This document shows positions 7,377 to 16,647 of a stretch of 64,000 nt of DNA, piece by piece. A program made the translations under genes and the position numbers. The stretch spans positions 18,867 through 82,866 of the IMG/VR virus record IMGVR_UViG_3300037827_000415; one strand, written 5' to 3'. The DNA comes from a virus. The notes below the pieces were generated by a model. It ran no database searches. It was given only the letters and a program-made list of their open reading frames with translations, and was not told the DNA's origin. The first letter of the stretch is position 1. Every line of letters starts with the position of its first letter.

Positions 7377-9302
7377 CTAGGCGAACAGGACGCCTTGTTC
7401 AGTTTTTGAAGATACAGCTCTTTTGCAATTCTTGATAGCGGCGTCGAAATATGATTCCTTTAGTTCGATTCCATAAAATCGCCTTTCCAACTGGATGGCG
7501 CTGTAGCCGGTGCTCCCCACGCCGCAAAAACAGTCCAGTACCAGTTCGCCGGGATTACTCCACAGCCGCACGCACCGCTCGCAAATGTCGAGCGGGAACG
7601 CACAGATATGCCGCGTGTCCTCTTCGTCCTTCGCTTCAAGCGTATTGAGCGTCCGCGACCAGCGGATATCCGACCAGCACGCTTCGGCCCAGTCAATCCA
7701 CTGATTGCGGCTCACTTGGTTTTCGCTGTCGATCAGAACCGCATTCTCGCCCGGCTTGCGGAACTTGATGATGTAGTCCGGCAGACATGGGGCCGACTGC
7801 GAGCGATCGCGTTCAAGGCCGACGAATTGCAGGCGACGTGATCTTGTGCGAATCGCCTCGGAATTATGCGTGAGAATGCAGCTTTCCGTCGCGAACAGAC
7901 CGTCCTCGGCTTCGACCGTGATGCACGTGCAAGGAAATTCGCCGATCTCTTCGATGGCAACGACAGCCCGCCTGAATCCCTTCTGCGGCGGAATCCACTT
8001 CGCGATCTTGTCCTTGAACCTGAACGGACATATTCCGTCTCGAAGACGCGGGGTCAACTCGTAAATCACTCTACCGAATCGCGTTTCGCCGTTGTGGTGA
8101 TACTTGCTGCCCGCTCGTGCGATCTTTGTGCAGATTCCGCCAAGCGACTCTACAAGAAACTTGAAGTCGTCAGCCAGACGCTCCGACGTTGTGTGGAACG
8201 CTACGCCGCCCTTCACCTTGTTTTTTCCGTCCGTATCGAGCAGCCCCGCAATCAATAGTCGGCGGGACATTTCGTCCGCGAAAAGATAGGTCGGCGGGAC
8301 GAACTTATCCCAAGCGTGCTTGCCTTCCAGTCCGAGCGACCGAATCGCGTGCAGGACGTCATTACGATGCCATTCCGGGCATGTGATGTTCCAGGTTGAA
8401 GCATCGTTGCCGCGCTCGGATCCGGGATTCAGCCGGAGGCTATGATTATGTGGAAGAGACAGGTTCTCTACGATTCCGCGTTGCGTGCAAATTTCGACAA
8501 CGCCGCGTTTCGACAGGCAGCCATCACCAAGCAGTACGCCAAGCAGATATGGATCCAGCGGCAATTGCTTTGCGTTGAATTTTACGGCCCCGCCAATCGT
8601 CGGCAGGAAAAACTTCGCCGATCCGCTTGGCTGAAATAGCCCGCGACTCTTGATCTCCTCCGTCTTTAGTACGATTTGCCGCCTTTCTCCGTGAATTTGA
8701 GCGGTAGTCATCACTGACCAGAGATGGTTGCCGTCGCAGTCAACTGAAGACCCGTCGGACGTCGAGACGCGAAACAGCCTTCTCGTGCCTTGCGGCCACA
8801 CGCCCACGACACGCGTCGGCTGACCAGAAGATCCGATCACTTGATCATTGATGGCGAGAGACTGAATCTCGCTCCATCCTTGAGGCGTCAAAACCCTCGA
8901 TCCGTCTCGTAGAGCCTGCGGATTCTTTGAACACATGACTTCGCCGTCGTAAATGAATCCCGCTCGCTGGCCAAGGCGAATGTTGAGCCCGCGAAAGTCG
9001 TGAACGCCTTCGCCGCCCACTCGCTTCAGGCCGGGGATTTGCATGACGTGGCAAGCGAACACGCGGCCCGGCTTGAGTACGCGAAGGATCCTGCGATAGA
9101 AGAATGCAAGATGGACTTTGGACTCCGCCCCGTAGCTTTCGACGTTGCCGATGTCTGACTCGCTGTCGCTGTACGCGAACAATGCGGGGAAGGCCGGGCT
9201 GCACATGGCGAAATCGACTGACGATTCCGGCATGACGCTCTCCATATGGGGGATAGCATCGCCGTGGTGGATGAAGAATTCTTCGCCTTCGGGAATCAGC
9301 AT
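7377..9302 (-). CDS. N4-C/N6-A DNA methyltransferase (beta class) containing an intein
   Basis: SPAF (SPPF-like motif IV), HICAFP, and VLDCFCGVGSTG (motif I). Confidence 0.85.
   Translation of the reverse strand: MLIPEGEEFFIHHGDAIPHMESVMPESSVDFAMCSPAFPALFAYSDSESDIGNVESYGAESKVHLAFFYRRILRVLKPGRVFACHVMQIPGLKRVGGEGVHDFRGLNIRLGQRAGFIYDGEVMCSKNPQALRDGSRVLTPQGWSEIQSLAINDQVIGSSGQPTRVVGVWPQGTRRLFRVSTSDGSSVDCDGNHLWSVMTTAQIHGERRQIVLKTEEIKSRGLFQPSGSAKFFLPTIGGAVKFNAKQLPLDPYLLGVLLGDGCLSKRGVVEICTQRGIVENLSLPHNHSLRLNPGSERGNDASTWNITCPEWHRNDVLHAIRSLGLEGKHAWDKFVPPTYLFADEMSRRLLIAGLLDTDGKNKVKGGVAFHTTSERLADDFKFLVESLGGICTKIARAGSKYHHNGETRFGRVIYELTPRLRDGICPFRFKDKIAKWIPPQKGFRRAVVAIEEIGEFPCTCITVEAEDGLFATESCILTHNSEAIRTRSRRLQFVGLERDRSQSAPCLPDYIIKFRKPGENAVLIDSENQVSRNQWIDWAEACWSDIRWSRTLNTLEAKDEEDTRHICAFPLDICERCVRLWSNPGELVLDCFCGVGSTGYSAIQLERRFYGIELKESYFDAAIKNCKRAVSSKTEQGVLFA
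7863..8915 (-). mobile_element. Class 3 intein (351 aa) with LAGLIDADG homing endonuclease, inside the methyltransferase
   Basis: Junctions KNPQ/ALRDGSRV and ILTHN/S; block B NHLW, block F CTCITV; endonuclease motifs LLGVLLGDG and IAGLLDTDG. Confidence 0.85.
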
Positions 9303-9736
9303 CAGTCGCACCTTTCGCCAAAGCCTTCGCGTTCGTGAAACTGATAGTCGATTTTGTGGCCCGGAACGCCGCAGAGTCGTCCGCGGATTTCGTGCCATTC
9401 TTCCGAGTTTTCTTCGACGGTTTGCATTTTCAGGATTGCGTCGCCGACTTCCGTATCCCGCACGACCCAGATTTCACGACCGCGATTGAACGGAAGGATC
9501 CGCACTTGCAATCCATACCGGTGGCCGACCTTCAGGCAAATATCAAAGACGACCTTGAACCATTCTTCCGACGGCCGGAACATCGCGGCTCGACATGCCC
9601 CGAGATAAATCTTCTCCGCTTCTCCGCTGACGAATCCGGCCGCGAACACCGGAATTAAAGCCGGGTCCATGCCGGTGAATTGTTCAAGCCCAACTTTGTA
9701 AAGCGGGCCGCACGTCTGCGGTTTCAAAGTTGCCAT
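9302..9736 (-). CDS. Hypothetical protein
   Basis: Tightly coupled between the helicase and methyltransferase genes. Confidence 0.55.
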   Translation of the reverse strand: MATLKPQTCGPLYKVGLEQFTGMDPALIPVFAAGFVSGEAEKIYLGACRAAMFRPSEEWFKVVFDICLKVGHRYGLQVRILPFNRGREIWVVRDTEVGDAILKMQTVEENSEEWHEIRGRLCGVPGHKIDYQFHEREGFGERCD

Positions 9737-12047: not shown

Positions 12048-12177
12048 GTCCGCACCGTACCGAATCTGCCGTGGGCGAGTCAAATTTTTTCGGAATTGTA
12101 TACTTAACAAACCAAGCCAAGAAGGCAGATTGACAGGCCAAAACAGCGCAACTTATGATGCTGCATGAGGTTTCGTT

Positions 12178-12369
12178 GTGGCATCACGACCAGAATTCAT
12201 CAAAGATATTCGGGAACACGTCGGCCGGCTTTGTTCGTCGATTGATCGCGAACTCGTCGACGAAACTCAGCGTTTTTGCGACTGGTGGGTCAACTGCTAC
12301 AAGCCGGATTCCACCTTGCAACCAAGTCGCCCACCTCGGCGAGACGTTCCCGCTCATCGCCCCGATTGA
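12178..12369 (+). CDS. Small IS cargo ORF, convergent with and overlapping the GIY-YIG-like gene
   Basis: Preceded by TTGACA-N18-TATGAT (12130-12159) and a GAGG motif before the GTG start. Confidence 0.35.
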   Translation: MASRPEFIKDIREHVGRLCSSIDRELVDETQRFCDWWVNCYKPDSTLQPSRPPRRDVPAHRPD

Positions 12370-12613
12370 TGCGGGCTAAGATGTGGGTGGCCCCTTTCGC
12401 GATCGCGGCAGACTTTATGTCGCTCTCCCGCGTGCAGCAGTCTCTGAGCGAATCGCCTTGCCCAAAATAAAGCGATTCCCAGTGGCCCGGTTTCCATTCG
12501 AGTGCGAAAGCGAAGTTTCCCGGCTCATCGGCAAACTCGTTGTCTAGCGGGTAAATCCAGTACTCATATTCCCTTCCGGATTCGCCCGGATAAATAACCA
12601 CCGGTATAAGCAT
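12290..12613 (-). CDS. GIY-YIG-like nuclease-fold protein, degenerate (IS cargo)
   Basis: PGNFAF...LYFGQGDSLRD...E..L...WNPAC resembles small stand-alone GIY-YIG proteins. Confidence 0.5.
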   Translation of the reverse strand: MLIPVVIYPGESGREYEYWIYPLDNEFADEPGNFAFALEWKPGHWESLYFGQGDSLRDCCTRESDIKSAAIAKGATHILARINRGDERERLAEVGDLVARWNPACSS

Positions 12614-12625
12614 TGAGCCGGGCCG

Positions 12626-12793
12626 TCACTTCTTCTTTTTCGTCCGCCGCTTTGCCTTCGCCTTAGGCTGGGGGACCGGCTCGGTACTAGCCCCGCCCGG
12701 CACTTGCAGGAACTTTTCGAGAGCGGTCTCGAAAGGCAGCGGGTGAAGAGAGATTTTCTTGCCGCGATCGGATTCCGGTTCCGGTTTCGTCAT
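12626..12793 (-). CDS. 55-aa basic protein (IS cargo; not in the ORF track)
   Basis: MTKPEPESDRGKKISLHPLPFETALEKFLQVP...KKKK; resembles short ORFs I associate with IS1595 elements. Confidence 0.55.
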   Translation of the reverse strand: MTKPEPESDRGKKISLHPLPFETALEKFLQVPGGASTEPVPQPKAKAKRRTKKKK

Positions 12794-12849
12794 GCCGGCG
12801 ATTGTAGCCGAAGGGGACGGATTGAATCCAATTTTTCGCCGCGCATCCC

Positions 12850-12878
12850 TTGACGCGCAAATGGGGCAGATCTAGGCT
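12850..12878 (+). promoter_or_regulatory. Sigma70-type promoter for the hairpin-tRNA transcript
   Basis: TTGACG-N17-TAGGCT. Confidence 0.55.
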
Positions 12879-12892
12879 GCCCGCAGTGCGGT

Positions 12893-13002
12893 AAAAAACC
12901 GCGTTTGATTCTGAGCGAAAGTCGAAAGGTCAACACGCTTGAGGCGTTCCCGAGCCTCAGGCGTGCCTTTACGTCTTGGCTCGGGATTGAACGCGGTTTT
13001 TT
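12893..13002 (+). ncRNA. 110-nt imperfect hairpin leader upstream of the tRNA
   Basis: The two arms are complementary, and many differences form G-U pairs on the plus strand; ends in T6. Confidence 0.6.
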
Positions 13003-13039
13003 CGTTTCTAGAAGTGAGTTTTGCGGAGAGAAGAAAAAC

Positions 13040-13139
13040 GCCGGGGTGGCGGAATTGGTAGACGCATCGGCCTTGGAAGCCGACGGGGGCCTCTTGCTAA
13101 GGGATCACCCCCGTGCGGGTTCAAATCCCGTCCCCGGCA
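13040..13139 (+). tRNA. 100-nt tRNA with Leu-type body and UGG (Pro) anticodon; very long variable arm; no encoded CCA
   Basis: Acceptor GCCGGGG/CCCCGGC with A73; D arm GCGGAATTGGTAGACGC; anticodon arm TCGGC-CTTGGAA-GCCGA; T arm GCGGG-TTCAAAT-CCCGT. Confidence 0.9.
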
Positions 13140-13279
13140 TTCTCATTGTAAAATGCGAGAACCGTCAGCGGCAAACTGACGGTTCTCCTGTTCGCCGTTA
13201 GGGGGCGAACCATGCCGTAAAGTCGCGCGCATGGTACCGCTCTCGGTTTTGACACACAAGACAAAACGGGACCGGGGCC

Positions 13280-13750
13280 ATGCCTCTCGTGAAATGCCGC
13301 GATTGCGGATATTTAGCTTCGCGCATCAAGGCTGACAATTCGCCCGTGGAGGCGGTCAGTCGCGTTCGCGATGCGGGACAATTTAGTCTTCAAGAATCAA
13401 GAGAAGTTCTGTGTTACAGGGGCTTTTCTGGCTTTCCGGTCAACGGGACGCTAACAGATCGGCCGCTGGCAGTTGCTCTTGAAAAAGAAATCGCATGTCC
13501 TGAATTCACGGTTTGGCTCAAGGGCAAAACGCCAAAAGAGCACGAAGACATGAGCATCTTAGAAAAGGTACGGCAGGAATATAGACAGTCCCAAGAGGAT
13601 GCCGAGCGGAAGGCAGACCAAAAGGCAGACGCGAGGGAACGCAAAGAGGACTCACGCCACTGGCGCACGTTTTGGCTAGCGGTCGCGGCCCTAGTCGCCT
13701 CCATTGCGATCGGCATTGCGAATTTCGCGTTCACGCTATCGAGACGCTAA
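13280..13750 (+). CDS. Zn-ribbon/coiled-coil protein with C-terminal TM helix (IS cargo)
   Basis: CRDC at the N-terminus and FWLAVAALVASIAIGIANF at the C-terminus. Confidence 0.6.
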   Translation: MPLVKCRDCGYLASRIKADNSPVEAVSRVRDAGQFSLQESREVLCYRGFSGFPVNGTLTDRPLAVALEKEIACPEFTVWLKGKTPKEHEDMSILEKVRQEYRQSQEDAERKADQKADARERKEDSRHWRTFWLAVAALVASIAIGIANFAFTLSRR

Positions 13751-13756
13751 TTCGCC

Positions 13757-14725
13757 TCACTGAATCCCGCCCCACAACTGATCGATGCCATCTCGCAGAA
13801 TTGGCTGGCGATACATGAGACGTCGGCCAGCAATGCCGTTGATTGCGACGTCCATTCGCTGCGAGTCCTTCATCTTTCGATTGTTCCAGCGGAAGCTGAA
13901 TTCATCGACGTAGCGATGCAGGTGACGCTTGCCAATCTGGTGGAACGTGCCGTAGTGACCACGCTTGAGCAACGCGAAAAAGCTTTCGGCCGTATTCGTC
14001 GTCACGAGCGTTTCGCCACCATTCGTCCTGCGGACGTATTCACGCTGCTTGTGCAACGAGCGGTGATGGCCACCGGCAAACTCGCGGCCGACGTGGTTAT
14101 AGAGCGGCACTTCATCGGTGAACAAAGTCGAGTTGCGATCGGCGTATTTGAACAACACTTCTCGCAGCGTCGATCCTTTCAGATCGTCAACCGGCGTTGC
14201 GTGGGCTCGGCCGCCACGTTCCACGAGCAACGCCACTGCTTTTTTTGATGTGCCGCGTCCCGCCTTGCTGACGCCCCTGTACCGGGGCTTGCCGCCGACG
14301 TAAGTTTCGTCTGCTTCCAGCTCGCCCTTCAACGCTCCGGCCAGTGGCTCTTGCTTCATCGCGTACCGAATGCGATGGGCCATGAACCATGCGGTTTTGT
14401 AGGTCACGCCGAGCATCCGATGGAGCTGATGGGCCGACACTCCCTTTTTGCTCGCGGACATCAAATGCAGGGCCAGCAGCCAAATGCGAATCTTGATGTG
14501 CCCGCGTTCCATTACGGTTCCGACCGTCACCGTGAACTGCTTGCGGCACTTCGGATTCTTGCACTTGTAAACGCCGGGCCGCGTCGATTTTCCGGCCAGC
14601 TTGATCGACTCATTCGACATGCAATGCGGGCAGGCTCGACGCTCGCCATTCGCTCCCCAGCGGGTTGCCTCAAGATAATCGCGGGCCTCATCTTCTGTCA
14701 GCTTGCTGAGTTCGGCGAAATTCAT
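13757..14725 (-). CDS. IS1595-family (ISXO2-like) DDE transposase
   Basis: Zn ribbon CPHC...CKNPKC, HTH GVTYKTAWFMAHR, motifs EADETYVGG, LFTDE, TNTAESFF and YVDEFSFRWN; SD AAGGAG before MNFAEL. Confidence 0.95.
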   Translation of the reverse strand: MNFAELSKLTEDEARDYLEATRWGANGERRACPHCMSNESIKLAGKSTRPGVYKCKNPKCRKQFTVTVGTVMERGHIKIRIWLLALHLMSASKKGVSAHQLHRMLGVTYKTAWFMAHRIRYAMKQEPLAGALKGELEADETYVGGKPRYRGVSKAGRGTSKKAVALLVERGGRAHATPVDDLKGSTLREVLFKYADRNSTLFTDEVPLYNHVGREFAGGHHRSLHKQREYVRRTNGGETLVTTNTAESFFALLKRGHYGTFHQIGKRHLHRYVDEFSFRWNNRKMKDSQRMDVAINGIAGRRLMYRQPILRDGIDQLWGGIQ

Positions 14726-14799
14726 TGCGGGCTCCTTTGTTGACACCCGCATTATCGGTAATTACACTTGGTTTGTCAAGTATACAATTCCGAATTTTT

Positions 14800-16647
14800 T
14801 CAGTCGCCCAGTTCGTGCCCGTTCTTTTCCGCCCAATCGTCGCCGTCAAAGTCGAAGCTTGTGGCCGCACTGTCCATTGATGCCTCTGGCTTTTCCACGT
14901 GCAGTTTTTGCCGCGATGGCTCAAACCGGCATTTCACCGTGTGCTGATGCGTCGGCCGATTCTTGTTCTTCCCGATGAATACGAAGAATTCCTTTGGGTC
15001 GTGCTTCGCGTCGATCCGGTGCGGCCAAAGTAGGAATAAGATCACATCCGCGTCGCCCTCAATCTGCCCCGACTCACGAAGGTCCGACAGCTTTGGCTTG
15101 AACGTCTCCCGCTTCTCGACTTCTCGGCCAAGCTGGGCCAGTTCGATCATCAGCACTCCGGTTTCCGTGGCGATGTGCTTGAGCATCAGGCTGGTTTCGG
15201 TGACTTGCTCGTAGCGGCTGTTTTTCTTGCCGAGCAGCAGTTGCATGTAGTCCACGACTACGCAGCGAACGCCGTGATCGCGAACGTGCTGGCGGATCGA
15301 CTCGCAGGCCCGTTGCGGCGTGCCGCAGTTCTCGACGACGTAAATCGGGGCTCGCTCGTGAAAGTGGCCGTCCACGTCCTTGAGCACGTCCTCGGAACGG
15401 TGAACCCACGCCTCTTCATTGATCGGGGTTGAATACTGGATCGCCCGTTTGCCCAGCATTAGGCGGGACATTTCGTCTGAGATGATTAGGATCGGGTGTC
15501 CCTCTCCGGCAATGTTGTACGCCGCTTGAAGTGCGGTAGCCGATTTTGCATGGCTCGGCCTCGCCGCGATGATGACCACCTCCGGCGGCTGCACCCCGCC
15601 GCCGATGGCATAATCCACATCACCCAATCCAAGGCTGATGAGCCCTTGCTTCCCGTCCTTCAGGCTGGCCATGTATTCGCGGGCCGACTCGTACAGCGTG
15701 TTGGACGGCGGCGGTTCAGGCGGTGCCTCGTGCTGCGGGACTCTAACCCGGTCCCACTGCATCGGCTGGACGTTTTTTAAGTACCCTCGCTCTCCAGGCA
15801 CCTTGTCGGCCTGCGAAAGTTTGTGGCGAATCTCCCGCTCGTTCCACGGCGGATCGCACAGATTGGACCACTCTGCCATGACCGCGTAGGCGTCAGGCTC
15901 AGTCAGGTCGAACCCGAGCATCAGCGTGCAGGCCACGTGGAACGCCTTGTCGTGTCCCTTCTGTCCGCTCACCGCGATCGGCATCCGGGCGACGTACTTC
16001 CGGGCTCGTTCGACGATTGCCGGCTGGCCGTAGAAGTCTGTCGGGGCTGGTGACCCAAGAGTTTGCGGCTTGAACCACTCGGCACAATAGCGATTCAGGA
16101 CCGCTTGCCGCTCCATCGGTTCTTTGGGGAACTTGCCCACTCGCTTGCCCGTGACGGCGAAGTATCGCAGATGGTCGTAGACTTCGATGCCCGGCTCTTT
16201 CTCGCCGACCGTGGCGACGCCTTCGACTTTGATTTTCTTGCCGGAGTCCATCGGGGCTTTCGCCCGAATGAACATTTTCGCCCCCGTGCCGCTGGGGCTG
16301 AGTTCGGTGTATGTGTTGAAGTCCGACATGATTTGCCGAGCCCAGTCGGCCCACTCGCCGGTTTCGAGGTTGCGGCAACCGTCCAGGTCGATGCCGCAGA
16401 ATTCGTCTTCCGCGGTGAAGACGAATCCGATGCCCGACCATCGGCCGGTGATCCGATTGGCCGTGACGGCGGATTTGAAGTTGCACCAAGTCTGCGGATC
16501 ATTCGACTTGGCTAACTGGCCAGAGAACACGCTGTATGGGAGCTTTGTCGGCTTGTCGCCGTCGCGGGTCACGATTGTCCAGACCAGCCACTGACGAAGT
16601 TCCTGTAACGCTGTCGGCACGCCTTCGGGACAGACCTGGATCAGCAT
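14800..16647 (-). CDS. AEP (NrS-1-like) primase-polymerase fused to a DnaB-like SF4 helicase
   Basis: N-terminal GIGFVF, GIDLDGC, TELSPSGTG and IEVYD..RYFAVTG; C-terminal AARPSHAKS, VVVDYMQLL and LSDLRESGQIEGDADV. Confidence 0.85.
   Translation of the reverse strand: MLIQVCPEGVPTALQELRQWLVWTIVTRDGDKPTKLPYSVFSGQLAKSNDPQTWCNFKSAVTANRITGRWSGIGFVFTAEDEFCGIDLDGCRNLETGEWADWARQIMSDFNTYTELSPSGTGAKMFIRAKAPMDSGKKIKVEGVATVGEKEPGIEVYDHLRYFAVTGKRVGKFPKEPMERQAVLNRYCAEWFKPQTLGSPAPTDFYGQPAIVERARKYVARMPIAVSGQKGHDKAFHVACTLMLGFDLTEPDAYAVMAEWSNLCDPPWNEREIRHKLSQADKVPGERGYLKNVQPMQWDRVRVPQHEAPPEPPPSNTLYESAREYMASLKDGKQGLISLGLGDVDYAIGGGVQPPEVVIIAARPSHAKSATALQAAYNIAGEGHPILIISDEMSRLMLGKRAIQYSTPINEEAWVHRSEDVLKDVDGHFHERAPIYVVENCGTPQRACESIRQHVRDHGVRCVVVDYMQLLLGKKNSRYEQVTETSLMLKHIATETGVLMIELAQLGREVEKRETFKPKLSDLRESGQIEGDADVILFLLWPHRIDAKHDPKEFFVFIGKNKNRPTHQHTVKCRFEPSRQKLHVEKPEASMDSAATSFDFDGDDWAEKNGHELGD

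Follow-up and report, generated by a model that had tools for sequence, protein, structure and literature searches.

A leucine-type tRNA carried by an IS1595-family transposon has an anticodon that co-varies with codons of the element's own transposase gene

The 64,000-nucleotide stretch of viral DNA analyzed here (positions 18,867 to 82,866 of IMG/VR virus record IMGVR_UViG_3300037827_000415; hereafter the window) contains an insertion sequence (IS) of the IS1595 family, and this element carries a 100-nt tRNA gene with a leucine-type (Leu-type) body and the proline anticodon UGG. The gene is a real tRNA under selection, carried as transposon cargo. Its anticodon is the complement of two codons in the transposase gene (tnp) of the same element, and across related elements the anticodon and the tnp codon change together, through sense codons and stop codons alike. 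Because of this co-variation, the tRNA appears to be aimed, at least partly, at the transposon's own mRNA. The matched tRNA and transposase codons point to what may be an undescribed way for mobile DNA to control the decoding of its own gene.

Relatives of the window transposase were taken from genomes, viral contigs, and metagenomes (referred to below by L numbers) and were then scanned for tRNAs in a search that was blind to the anticodon. These transposases are 42 to 58% identical to that of the window, and the same type of tRNA lies convergent with tnp, usually less than 100 bp from the tnp stop codon. Members of the family have in common a Leu-type D arm, A73, G1:C72, and a long variable arm. 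Viral contigs were also scanned on their own for a Leu-type D arm followed by an NGG anticodon, which added more members, four of them (L186, L188, L191, and L195) with an adjacent transposase gene; several members found in this way have variable arms of ∼30 nt like that of the window tRNA. In L007, L009, and L085, the homologous tRNA lies between the element's own inverted repeats. The family spans several bacterial phyla as well as viral contigs, and seven of the eight tRNA-bearing rows of the transposase tree fall in one well-supported set of 27 rows.

The transposases were aligned together with their codons, and the codons at two positions, site 1 and site 2 (Table 1), were read against the anticodon. 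In the window, both sites are CCA, the exact complement of UGG, and these are the only two CCA codons among the nine proline codons of tnp. At site 2, elements with a UGG anticodon have CCA (the window; L009, L021, and L343 from the transposase-anchored searches; and L186, L188, L191, and L195 from the NGG-requiring scan). The remaining Leu-type tRNAs, all from the transposase-anchored searches, pair CGG with CCG (L007 and L335), AGG with CCT (L085 and L339), CCU with AGG (L054), UUA with TAA (L140), and CUA with TAG (L396, in which the reading frame is open beyond the TAG). Altogether, the site-2 codon complements the anticodon in 15/16 Leu-type tRNAs, covering six codon types that include two stops. 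When anticodons were shuffled among the elements, the mean number of matches was 5.2 and none of 200,000 shuffles reached 15. Because related elements share ancestry, it is safer to count independent events by the six codon types, and multiplying the frequencies of these codons at site 2 among all transposases gives about 2e-11.

Site 1 also matches in the elements with proline anticodons that were checked, except for L343. In several elements the cognate codon occurs only at the matched sites: CCG accounts for two of seven proline codons in L007, CCT for two of 16 in L085, and AGG occurs once in L054. Elsewhere in tnp, the cognate codon is clearly avoided in four elements, but the effect is weak when pooled (9/68 other proline codons). 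The exception to the site-2 match is L336, in which irregular tRNAs (anticodons GCC and GAU) lie 1.2 kb downstream of the transposase gene and the two sites are CCA and CCA. These L336 genes form a tandem class-II pair (2161-2256 and 2261-2346), with GAU on a Ser-type body and GCC on a Leu-type body.

The complementarity between the anticodon loop and the tnp mRNA ends at the triplet. Antisense pairing of the anticodon arm with the mRNA was therefore ruled out, and the link is one of decoding. Frameshifting in the +1 direction by a tRNA without m1G37 was also considered and rejected, as a common slippery context is absent at the sites.

The first-pass annotation of the window had described an intact 100-nt cloverleaf of the 7/5 type, and every anatomical detail that it listed is present. 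The gene matches the full Rfam tRNA model (positions 1 to 71) at 60 bits, versus a gathering score of 29, and scores 83.4 bits against R1, a family covariance model built here. The acceptor stem is a perfect 7 bp (GCCGGGG/CCCCGGC, with G1:C72) followed by the discriminator A73 (the A at 13139), and the CCA end is not encoded. The D arm is GCGGAATTGGTAGACGC. A 5-bp anticodon stem (TCGGC/GCCGA) closes the 7-nt loop C-T-TGG-A-A, which has U33, A37, and the anticodon at 13074-13076. The variable region of 31 nt consists of CGGGGG/CCCCCG and an inner hairpin, CUCUU-GCU-AAGGG. The T arm, GCGGG-TTCAAAT-CCCGT, has a 5-bp stem and a loop that fits TTCRANY; U48 is present and forms A15:U48. With default settings, ARAGORN called no tRNA in the window, because its default model does not accommodate so long a variable arm; this miss is thus not evidence against the gene, and with an "intron" allowed the program returned tRNA-Pro(tgg). 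Contigs of four public sequencing runs (two of them from metatranscriptome libraries) cover the tRNA with zero differences and show UGG rather than the leucine anticodons UAG or UAA, and the junction between the IS and the phage is bridged by contigs in three runs. Being contigs, they bear on the sequence and not on transcription, processing, or RNA ends.

Selection on the structure is evident from an alignment of 18 tRNAs (the window and 17 relatives). In this alignment, 95.6% of cells are paired, versus 38 to 45% in slid controls, and both sides have changed in 21/24 base pairs, a value reached in none of 500 shuffles. The helices are 92 to 100% paired, and the 7/5 arrangement is found in all 18 members. 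A14, A15, G18, G19, U48, and A73 are invariant, and G1:C72 is present in 17/18. The stems have thus been kept by compensatory change, in line with the initial view that the gene is not simply decaying. The variable arm is less uniform, at 31 nt in the window versus 13 to 17 nt in most relatives, and a pattern specific to the window variable arm found no match in viral contigs. The D arm GTGGCGAAAYTGGNAAACGC was tried as a family marker and discarded, as the matches listed were mostly ordinary phage tRNA-Leu genes.

Which amino acid the tRNA carries can be approached through its identity elements. In Escherichia coli, the determinants read by leucyl-tRNA synthetase (LeuRS) are A73, A15:U48, G18G19, and A20a, with the anticodon and the variable arm dispensable, while those read by prolyl-tRNA synthetase (ProRS) are G72, G35, G36, A73, G15:C48, and G37 (PMC9976931). 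The window tRNA has the entire LeuRS set together with a Leu-type D arm, and this arm is identical at 20/20 bases to that of the native tRNA-Leu(CAG) of L030. The family model likewise gives the L030 native tRNA-Leu 70 bits versus 29 to 31 bits for tRNA-Ser and tRNA-Sec. Of the features expected of tRNA-Pro, the window tRNA has the NGG anticodon (G35 and G36) and A73; it has G1:C72 rather than C1:G72, A15:U48 rather than G15:C48, A37, and a 31-nt variable arm. Because its anticodon is UGG rather than NAG or YAA, it is not a leucine isoacceptor in the decoding sense. Across the family, one type of body carries proline, arginine, ochre, and amber anticodons. The body is thus what all members share, and they have no other common feature that a synthetase could use. 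Among the close tRNA-less kin of L007, site 2 is leucine in L005 and isoleucine in the sister L020. We infer that charging is determined by the body, with leucine, as the only rule that covers all members; since LeuRS ignores the anticodon, leucine is the most likely amino acid on the tRNA. Its use on the ribosome and an effect on transposition are likewise putative.

The model that we consider most attractive, and for which we judge the case to be evenly balanced, is that the transposon supplies its own decoder, a LeuRS-charged tRNA, for dedicated codons of its transposase. LeuRS would charge the tRNA, and its UGG anticodon would read CCA and probably, by wobble, CCG. The tRNA and tnp form a matched pair through two codons, one for aa 136, which lies in the linker that follows the DNA-binding region, and one for aa 317, just before the C terminus, and a change of anticodon in related elements is accompanied by a change of the matched codons. 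If the tRNA is charged with leucine, a share of the transposase would receive leucine instead of proline at these sites; in relatives, the alternative to leucine would be arginine or chain termination. Transposase output or activity would then hinge on whether the element expresses its tRNA. As a side effect, CCA codons in host and phage mRNAs would be misread (the long open reading frames [ORFs] of the phage contain 209 CCA codons, 16% of its proline codons).

A stricter version, which we offer tentatively and would sooner bet against, treats the matched triplet as a "private codon," such that an active or self-limiting transposase is made only when the Leu-charged tRNA of the element reads it. 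The codons at aa 136 and aa 317 would be proline, arginine, or stop codons according to lineage, and the tRNA would be a cis-linked key coupling transposition to tRNA expression. Anticodon and codons would drift together through the code, and phages would spread a device that also misreads the host proteome.

Several observations weigh against recoding of the transposase by its own tRNA. Host tRNAs read CCA anyway, so dependence on the element's tRNA is not obligatory. In the smallest well-supported set of the transposase tree that holds the window, only 7 of 27 rows, about a quarter of the clade, have a tRNA. Site 2 is T, I, A, S, V, or P in tRNA-less relatives, so the residue may not matter there. 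Site 1 is proline in tRNA-less L005, L008, L020, L036, L084, and L128, and proline is therefore acceptable at this position. In L140, the matched stop is followed only four codons later by another stop, so that read-through would barely alter the protein. The idea that tnp has proline codons where its relatives need leucine was rejected: at eight conserved leucine columns, the transposases of tRNA-bearing elements have no proline. Regarding charging, G35, G36, and A73 are all read by ProRS, and some or all of the tRNA might carry proline. Finally, a scan for sigma-70 consensus promoters on the plus strand upstream of the tRNA gave no clear site; a weak TTGAAC-N16-TAGAAG was seen there by eye only. 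As site 1 tolerates proline, site 2 is variable, the L140 stop is close to the next one, and conserved leucine columns lack proline, the selected trait may be the decoding event or a particular isoform rather than rescue of an essential residue.

An alternative that we find unlikely, although more probable than the other rivals, accepts the pairing of tRNA and codon but gives the element a private supply of an ordinary decoder: members with proline anticodons would be charged by ProRS, setting the speed of translation at two codons and leaving the residue unchanged. Such a tRNA could act as a throttle or release a pause, and the pause could let the nascent transposase bind its own ends. The anticodon and A73 are strong ProRS determinants (PMC9976931), proline is the site-1 residue in tRNA-less relatives, residue identity looks unimportant at the variable site 2, and L361 pairs CCA at both sites with a class-I UGG tRNA rather than with a Leu-type body. 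However, C1:G72 and G15:C48 are missing and the window tRNA also has no G37, whereas the Leu determinants are invariant. ProRS could not serve the CCU, UUA, and CUA members with their matched AGG, TAA, and TAG codons. Nor is CCA rare in the phage, and a harmless tRNA-Pro gives no reason for the cognate codon to be confined to two sites in the window, L007, and L085.

A regulatory RNA that is shaped like a tRNA but donates no amino acid appears distinctly improbable. Uncharged or slow entry into the A site could stall ribosomes, or the structure could be a processing or stability signal for neighboring transcripts. The over-long variable arm, the missing CCA end, and the seemingly unconstrained residue at site 2 are compatible with such a role, and irregular allo-tRNAs found near transposons were inactive in translation (Mukai et al., PMC5389517). 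Yet the aminoacylation and elbow determinants, the 7-nt anticodon loop with U33, and the perfect acceptor stem have been kept by compensatory change. These are the determinants expected of a charged, ribosome-active tRNA, and mRNA complementarity that is limited to the triplet fits decoding.

We regard as at least equally improbable that the tRNA acts chiefly on the host or phage proteome or in defense, with the tnp match secondary. The first-pass annotation had suggested that the tRNA could be a toxin or abortive element, relieve polyproline stalls, or serve as a decoy for anticodon nucleases, and replacement of a nuclease-cleaved tRNA belongs with these ideas. The CCA codons of the phage ORFs would be open to misreading by a Leu-charged UGG tRNA, one related element carries a DUF5343/PDC-M34A candidate defense gene, and natural mistranslating tRNAs expressed constitutively are toxic in E. 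coli (PMC10404621). In contrast, the elements have no cargo in common beyond the transposase and a weak match to the 55-aa ORF in L085, and no toxin, antitoxin, nuclease, or defense family was found in the element. Nor do these ideas lead one to expect codons at sites 1 and 2 that change with the anticodon across six codon types. No supporting evidence was found for any of the three proposals; instead, the anticodon tracks the tnp codons, a relation that the annotation did not anticipate. Lastly, a decaying tRNA-Leu copy, a single A35G mutation, or a sequencing or assembly error is extremely improbable: UGG is one or two substitutions from the leucine anticodons UAG and UAA and ARAGORN makes no default call, but the stems are intact through compensatory change, NGG anticodons recur in homologs from diverged elements (transposases 42 to 58% identical), the contigs of four runs are identical, and the anticodon co-varies with the tnp codons.

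The closest known systems include the allo-tRNAs and "polycistrons of irregular tRNAs" of Acidobacteria and soil metagenomes (Mukai et al. 2017, PMC5389517). Toxin-antitoxin genes and a transposon-related ORF were found in their vicinity, and the authors suggested that they are linked to mobile elements (PMC5389517). Like allo-tRNAs, the family described here combines a long variable arm and a body whose synthetase ignores the anticodon with many nonmatching sense and stop anticodons. Unlike allo-tRNAs, which have 8/4 or 9/3 structures and Ser or Ala identity, the window tRNA has a 7/5 structure, a Leu-type D arm, and A73; the earlier statement that it is not an 8/4 or 9/3 allo-tRNA thus holds for the window and for all 18 aligned tRNAs. 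Neither cargo tRNAs of IS1595 elements nor matching transposase codons appear in the allo-tRNA paper (PMC5389517). Nematode nev-tRNAs are class-II tRNAs with glycine (CCC) or isoleucine (UAU) anticodons that are charged with leucine in vitro, the anticodon being ignored by LeuRS (Hamashima et al. 2012, PMC3333845; 2015, PMC4300185). The nev-tRNAs follow the same logic of a Leu-type class-II body with a foreign anticodon, Leu charging being proposed in our case, and differ from the window tRNA in being eukaryotic chromosomal genes that are not mobile and have no paired codons in a neighboring gene.

The tRNAProX/ProRSx systems of Streptomyces and relatives have a proline body with alanine, asparagine, or threonine anticodons and are usually accompanied by a synthetase gene dedicated to them (Schuntermann et al. 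2023, PMC10404621). The window tRNA is the reverse, with a Leu-type body, a proline anticodon, and no synthetase gene in the element, and a transposon is unmentioned for tRNAProX (PMC10404621). In both cases, a natural bacterial tRNA has an anticodon that disagrees with its amino-acid identity, and tRNAProX does so for deliberate missense decoding. These systems are reportedly also the subject of work by Vargas-Rodriguez et al. in PNAS in 2021. Phages are likewise said to carry suppressor tRNAs alongside recoded stop codons in their own genes (work attributed to Ivanova et al. in 2014, Borges et al. in 2022, and Peters et al. in 2022). The resemblance is that a mobile element carries a tRNA for special codons in its own genes, and L140 (UUA/TAA) and L396 (CUA/TAG) would be this arrangement in miniature. 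Whereas phage recoding is genome-wide, involving many genes and stops only, the present case involves one or two fixed positions, a single transposase gene, mostly sense codons, and an IS of 2 to 3 kb. In IS1 and the IS3 family, −1 frameshifting sets transposase output at the boundary between the DNA-binding and catalytic regions by means of slippery sequences and host tRNAs. Site 1 is at the same kind of boundary, but no slippery motif is found at the sites and the element brings its own tRNA. A review covers programmed recoding of translation in insertion sequences (PMC5009743). Literature searches for tRNAs borne by IS1595 elements or other transposons, or for transposase codons matched to a transposon tRNA, found no description.

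To our knowledge, natural tRNAs with mismatched body and anticodon are rare and mostly chromosomal curiosities. The window tRNA is mobile, being on an IS that here rides in a phage. If it is charged with leucine, it would be the first case known to us in which a transposon recodes its transposase by means of a tRNA that it carries itself, as well as a horizontally spreading source of sense-codon misreading. The family could offer a natural system for studying the onset of codon reassignment, the translational self-regulation of mobile elements, and the tolerance of cells for missense tRNAs, and its compact tRNA-codon pairs may be of use in genetic-code engineering.

The element itself (Table 1) is 2,702 bp long (12091-14792) and is called intact on the strength of its inverted repeats, an 8-bp target duplication, and the transposase domains. 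The same features, namely, the Pfam domains DDE_Tnp_IS1595 (PF12762, 7.7e-33) and Zn_ribbon_IS1595 (PF12760, 3.4e-10), the inverted repeats, and the 8-bp direct repeat AATTTTTT, bear out the initial placement of the tRNA inside an IS1595 element. A repeat search gave inverted-repeat arms of 28 nt, 27 of them complementary (96%); the outermost 2 nt fall within the target duplication, leaving repeats of 26 nt. The motif TATACTTrACAnACC is common to the inverted repeats of the window, L009, and L085. Eight base pairs is the usual length of target duplications in the IS1595 family (ISfinder).

Table 1. Features of the IS1595 element in the window (coordinates of the window)
Feature	Coordinates	Strand	Basis or remarks
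Target-site duplication, left copy (AATTTTTT, 8 bp)	12083..12090		Read from sequence; identical to 14793-14800
Terminal inverted repeat, tnp-distal end	12091..12116		Pairs with 14767-14794
Passenger ORF, 107 aa, no known family	12290..12613	-	ORF list
Passenger ORF, 55 aa, ISLHPL motif, basic C terminus	12626..12793	-	ORF list
Near-perfect 110-nt hairpin with A7/T7 flanks, between the 55-aa ORF and the tRNA	12893..13002		Inverted repeat I3
Leu-type class-II tRNA, anticodon UGG	13040..13139	+	Rfam RF00005, family model, compensatory changes, run contigs
12-bp GC-rich hairpin, 18 nt 3' of the tRNA; T-run on minus strand only	13157..13187		Read from sequence
Passenger ORF, 156 aa, N-terminal CxxC, C-terminal membrane helix, downstream of the tRNA on the same strand	13280..13750	+	ORF list
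IS1595-family transposase gene (tnp), 331 aa, convergent with the tRNA	13757..14752	-	Pfam
Site 2, CCA codon, transposase aa 317	13802..13804	-	Third residue after conserved GKRLxY motif
Site 1, CCA codon, transposase aa 136	14345..14347	-	After RIRYAM(xQE) helix, in linker before DDE domain
Terminal inverted repeat, tnp-proximal end	14767..14792		Pairs with 12091-12116
Target-site duplication, right copy (AATTTTTT)	14793..14800		Overlaps last base of primase-helicase stop codon

Transposase aside, the elements share no cargo except for ORFs weakly related to those of 55 and 107 aa, and the remaining cargo varies between elements. Homologs of the 107-aa ORF were found by tblastn just downstream of related transposase genes in L094, L010, and L039, and the 55-aa ORF weakly resembles an ORF at the equivalent place in the L085 element (BLASTP E = 7e-5 in a single comparison). 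The 156-aa ORF was not found in the related elements compared. Searches of Pfam, PHROGs, and PADLOC gave no significant family for the cargo ORFs, with no toxin, antitoxin, nuclease, or defense family among them in Pfam and PADLOC, and neither the ORF list nor the family searches revealed a synthetase-like ORF in the element. The 110-nt hairpin folds at −69.9 kcal/mol (z = −9.3; none of 200 shuffles was equally stable) and may be a two-way terminator, an insulator, or a small palindromic element. The hairpin 3' of the tRNA overlaps a weak, subthreshold Rfam match.

The virus record from which the window is drawn is 82,866 bp long and has direct terminal repeats and a completeness estimate of 100%. 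Its genes include those for an HK97-type major head protein and a large terminase. It is a tailed phage, which is present in sequencing runs from soil, rhizosphere, and leaf litter. The IS1595 element is surrounded by genes for an SNF2-type helicase, a DnaB-primase fusion, and an intein-bearing DNA methylase. The element inserted directly behind the phage gene for the primase-helicase (14800-16647, minus strand), right at the end of its stop codon; this ORF matches DnaB_C and a primase PHROG. The landing of the transposon in the phage genome is recent, and the element looks active. No IS-free (empty) phage site was seen in the public-run contigs that hold the phage, and a blastn search with the whole element against 50,697 phage records gave no match. 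Elsewhere in the phage, the methylase (7377-9398, minus strand) contains a Hint plus LAGLIDADG intein, and the large terminase (59692-62622, minus strand) is unusually long at 976 aa, with split PHROG matches that suggest an insert there too. The phage also has two irregular tRNA-like genes of its own outside the IS, both on the minus strand (20412-20514 and 20578-20669; Rfam tRNA, 33 to 34 bits), which ARAGORN folds only with "introns" of 31 and 8 nt, respectively. The second of these has the anticodon CCG and a 15-nt variable arm.

Across the wider set of transposases, the third codon position of site 2 is T in 109/145 (ACT, n = 38; ATT, n = 36; CCT, n = 15; GCT, n = 11; TCT, n = 6; and GTT, n = 3). 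The first two positions vary while the third is T-rich, a pattern opposite to normal coding constraint. Many of the source records come from Alphaproteobacteria. In an Acidobacteria clade (L012, L023, and L041), both site 1 and site 2 are TCA, and no tRNA with a UGA anticodon was found for this clade. L041 has a 116-nt Leu-type tRNA (7397-7512, minus strand) with a 34-nt insertion in the anticodon loop and an acceptor stem the same as that of the window tRNA.

Other unusual tRNAs lie near related transposase genes. Near alphaproteobacterial IS1595 transposase genes, there are tRNA-like molecules of ∼70 nt with GGGG...CTCCA ends, a reduced D arm, and G3:U70 with A73, the alanine identity pair (L011, 5091-5160, minus strand; L134, 5101-5168, minus strand; L087, 2514-2582; L103, 5701-5769; L154, 5580-5649; L143, 7029-7102; L062, 6109-6182; and L055, 6072-6141). 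The loop of the L011 copy contains UGG, and site 2 of the L011 tnp is CCA. Some elements have a second, class-I tRNA beside tnp, with anticodons that match neither site 1 nor site 2: GCU in L021 (1403-1476, minus strand) and L054 (5612-5685, minus strand), ACC in L140 (5090-5162, minus strand), CGU in L081 (4629-4701), and GUC in L398 (1323-1395, minus strand).

Further body/anticodon mismatches and irregular Leu-type genes were seen in phages. Viral contigs L236, L246, L279, L281, L289, L290, and L296 have class-II tRNAs with a Leu-type D arm, a 17-nt variable arm, G73, and the asparagine anticodon GUU, which constitute another mismatch of this kind. In the AT-rich viral contigs L164 to L216 (e.g., L165, L185, L200, and L215), many phage tRNA-Leu-like genes of 100 to 200 nt have insertions of 20 to 110 nt in the anticodon region, often within tRNA arrays.

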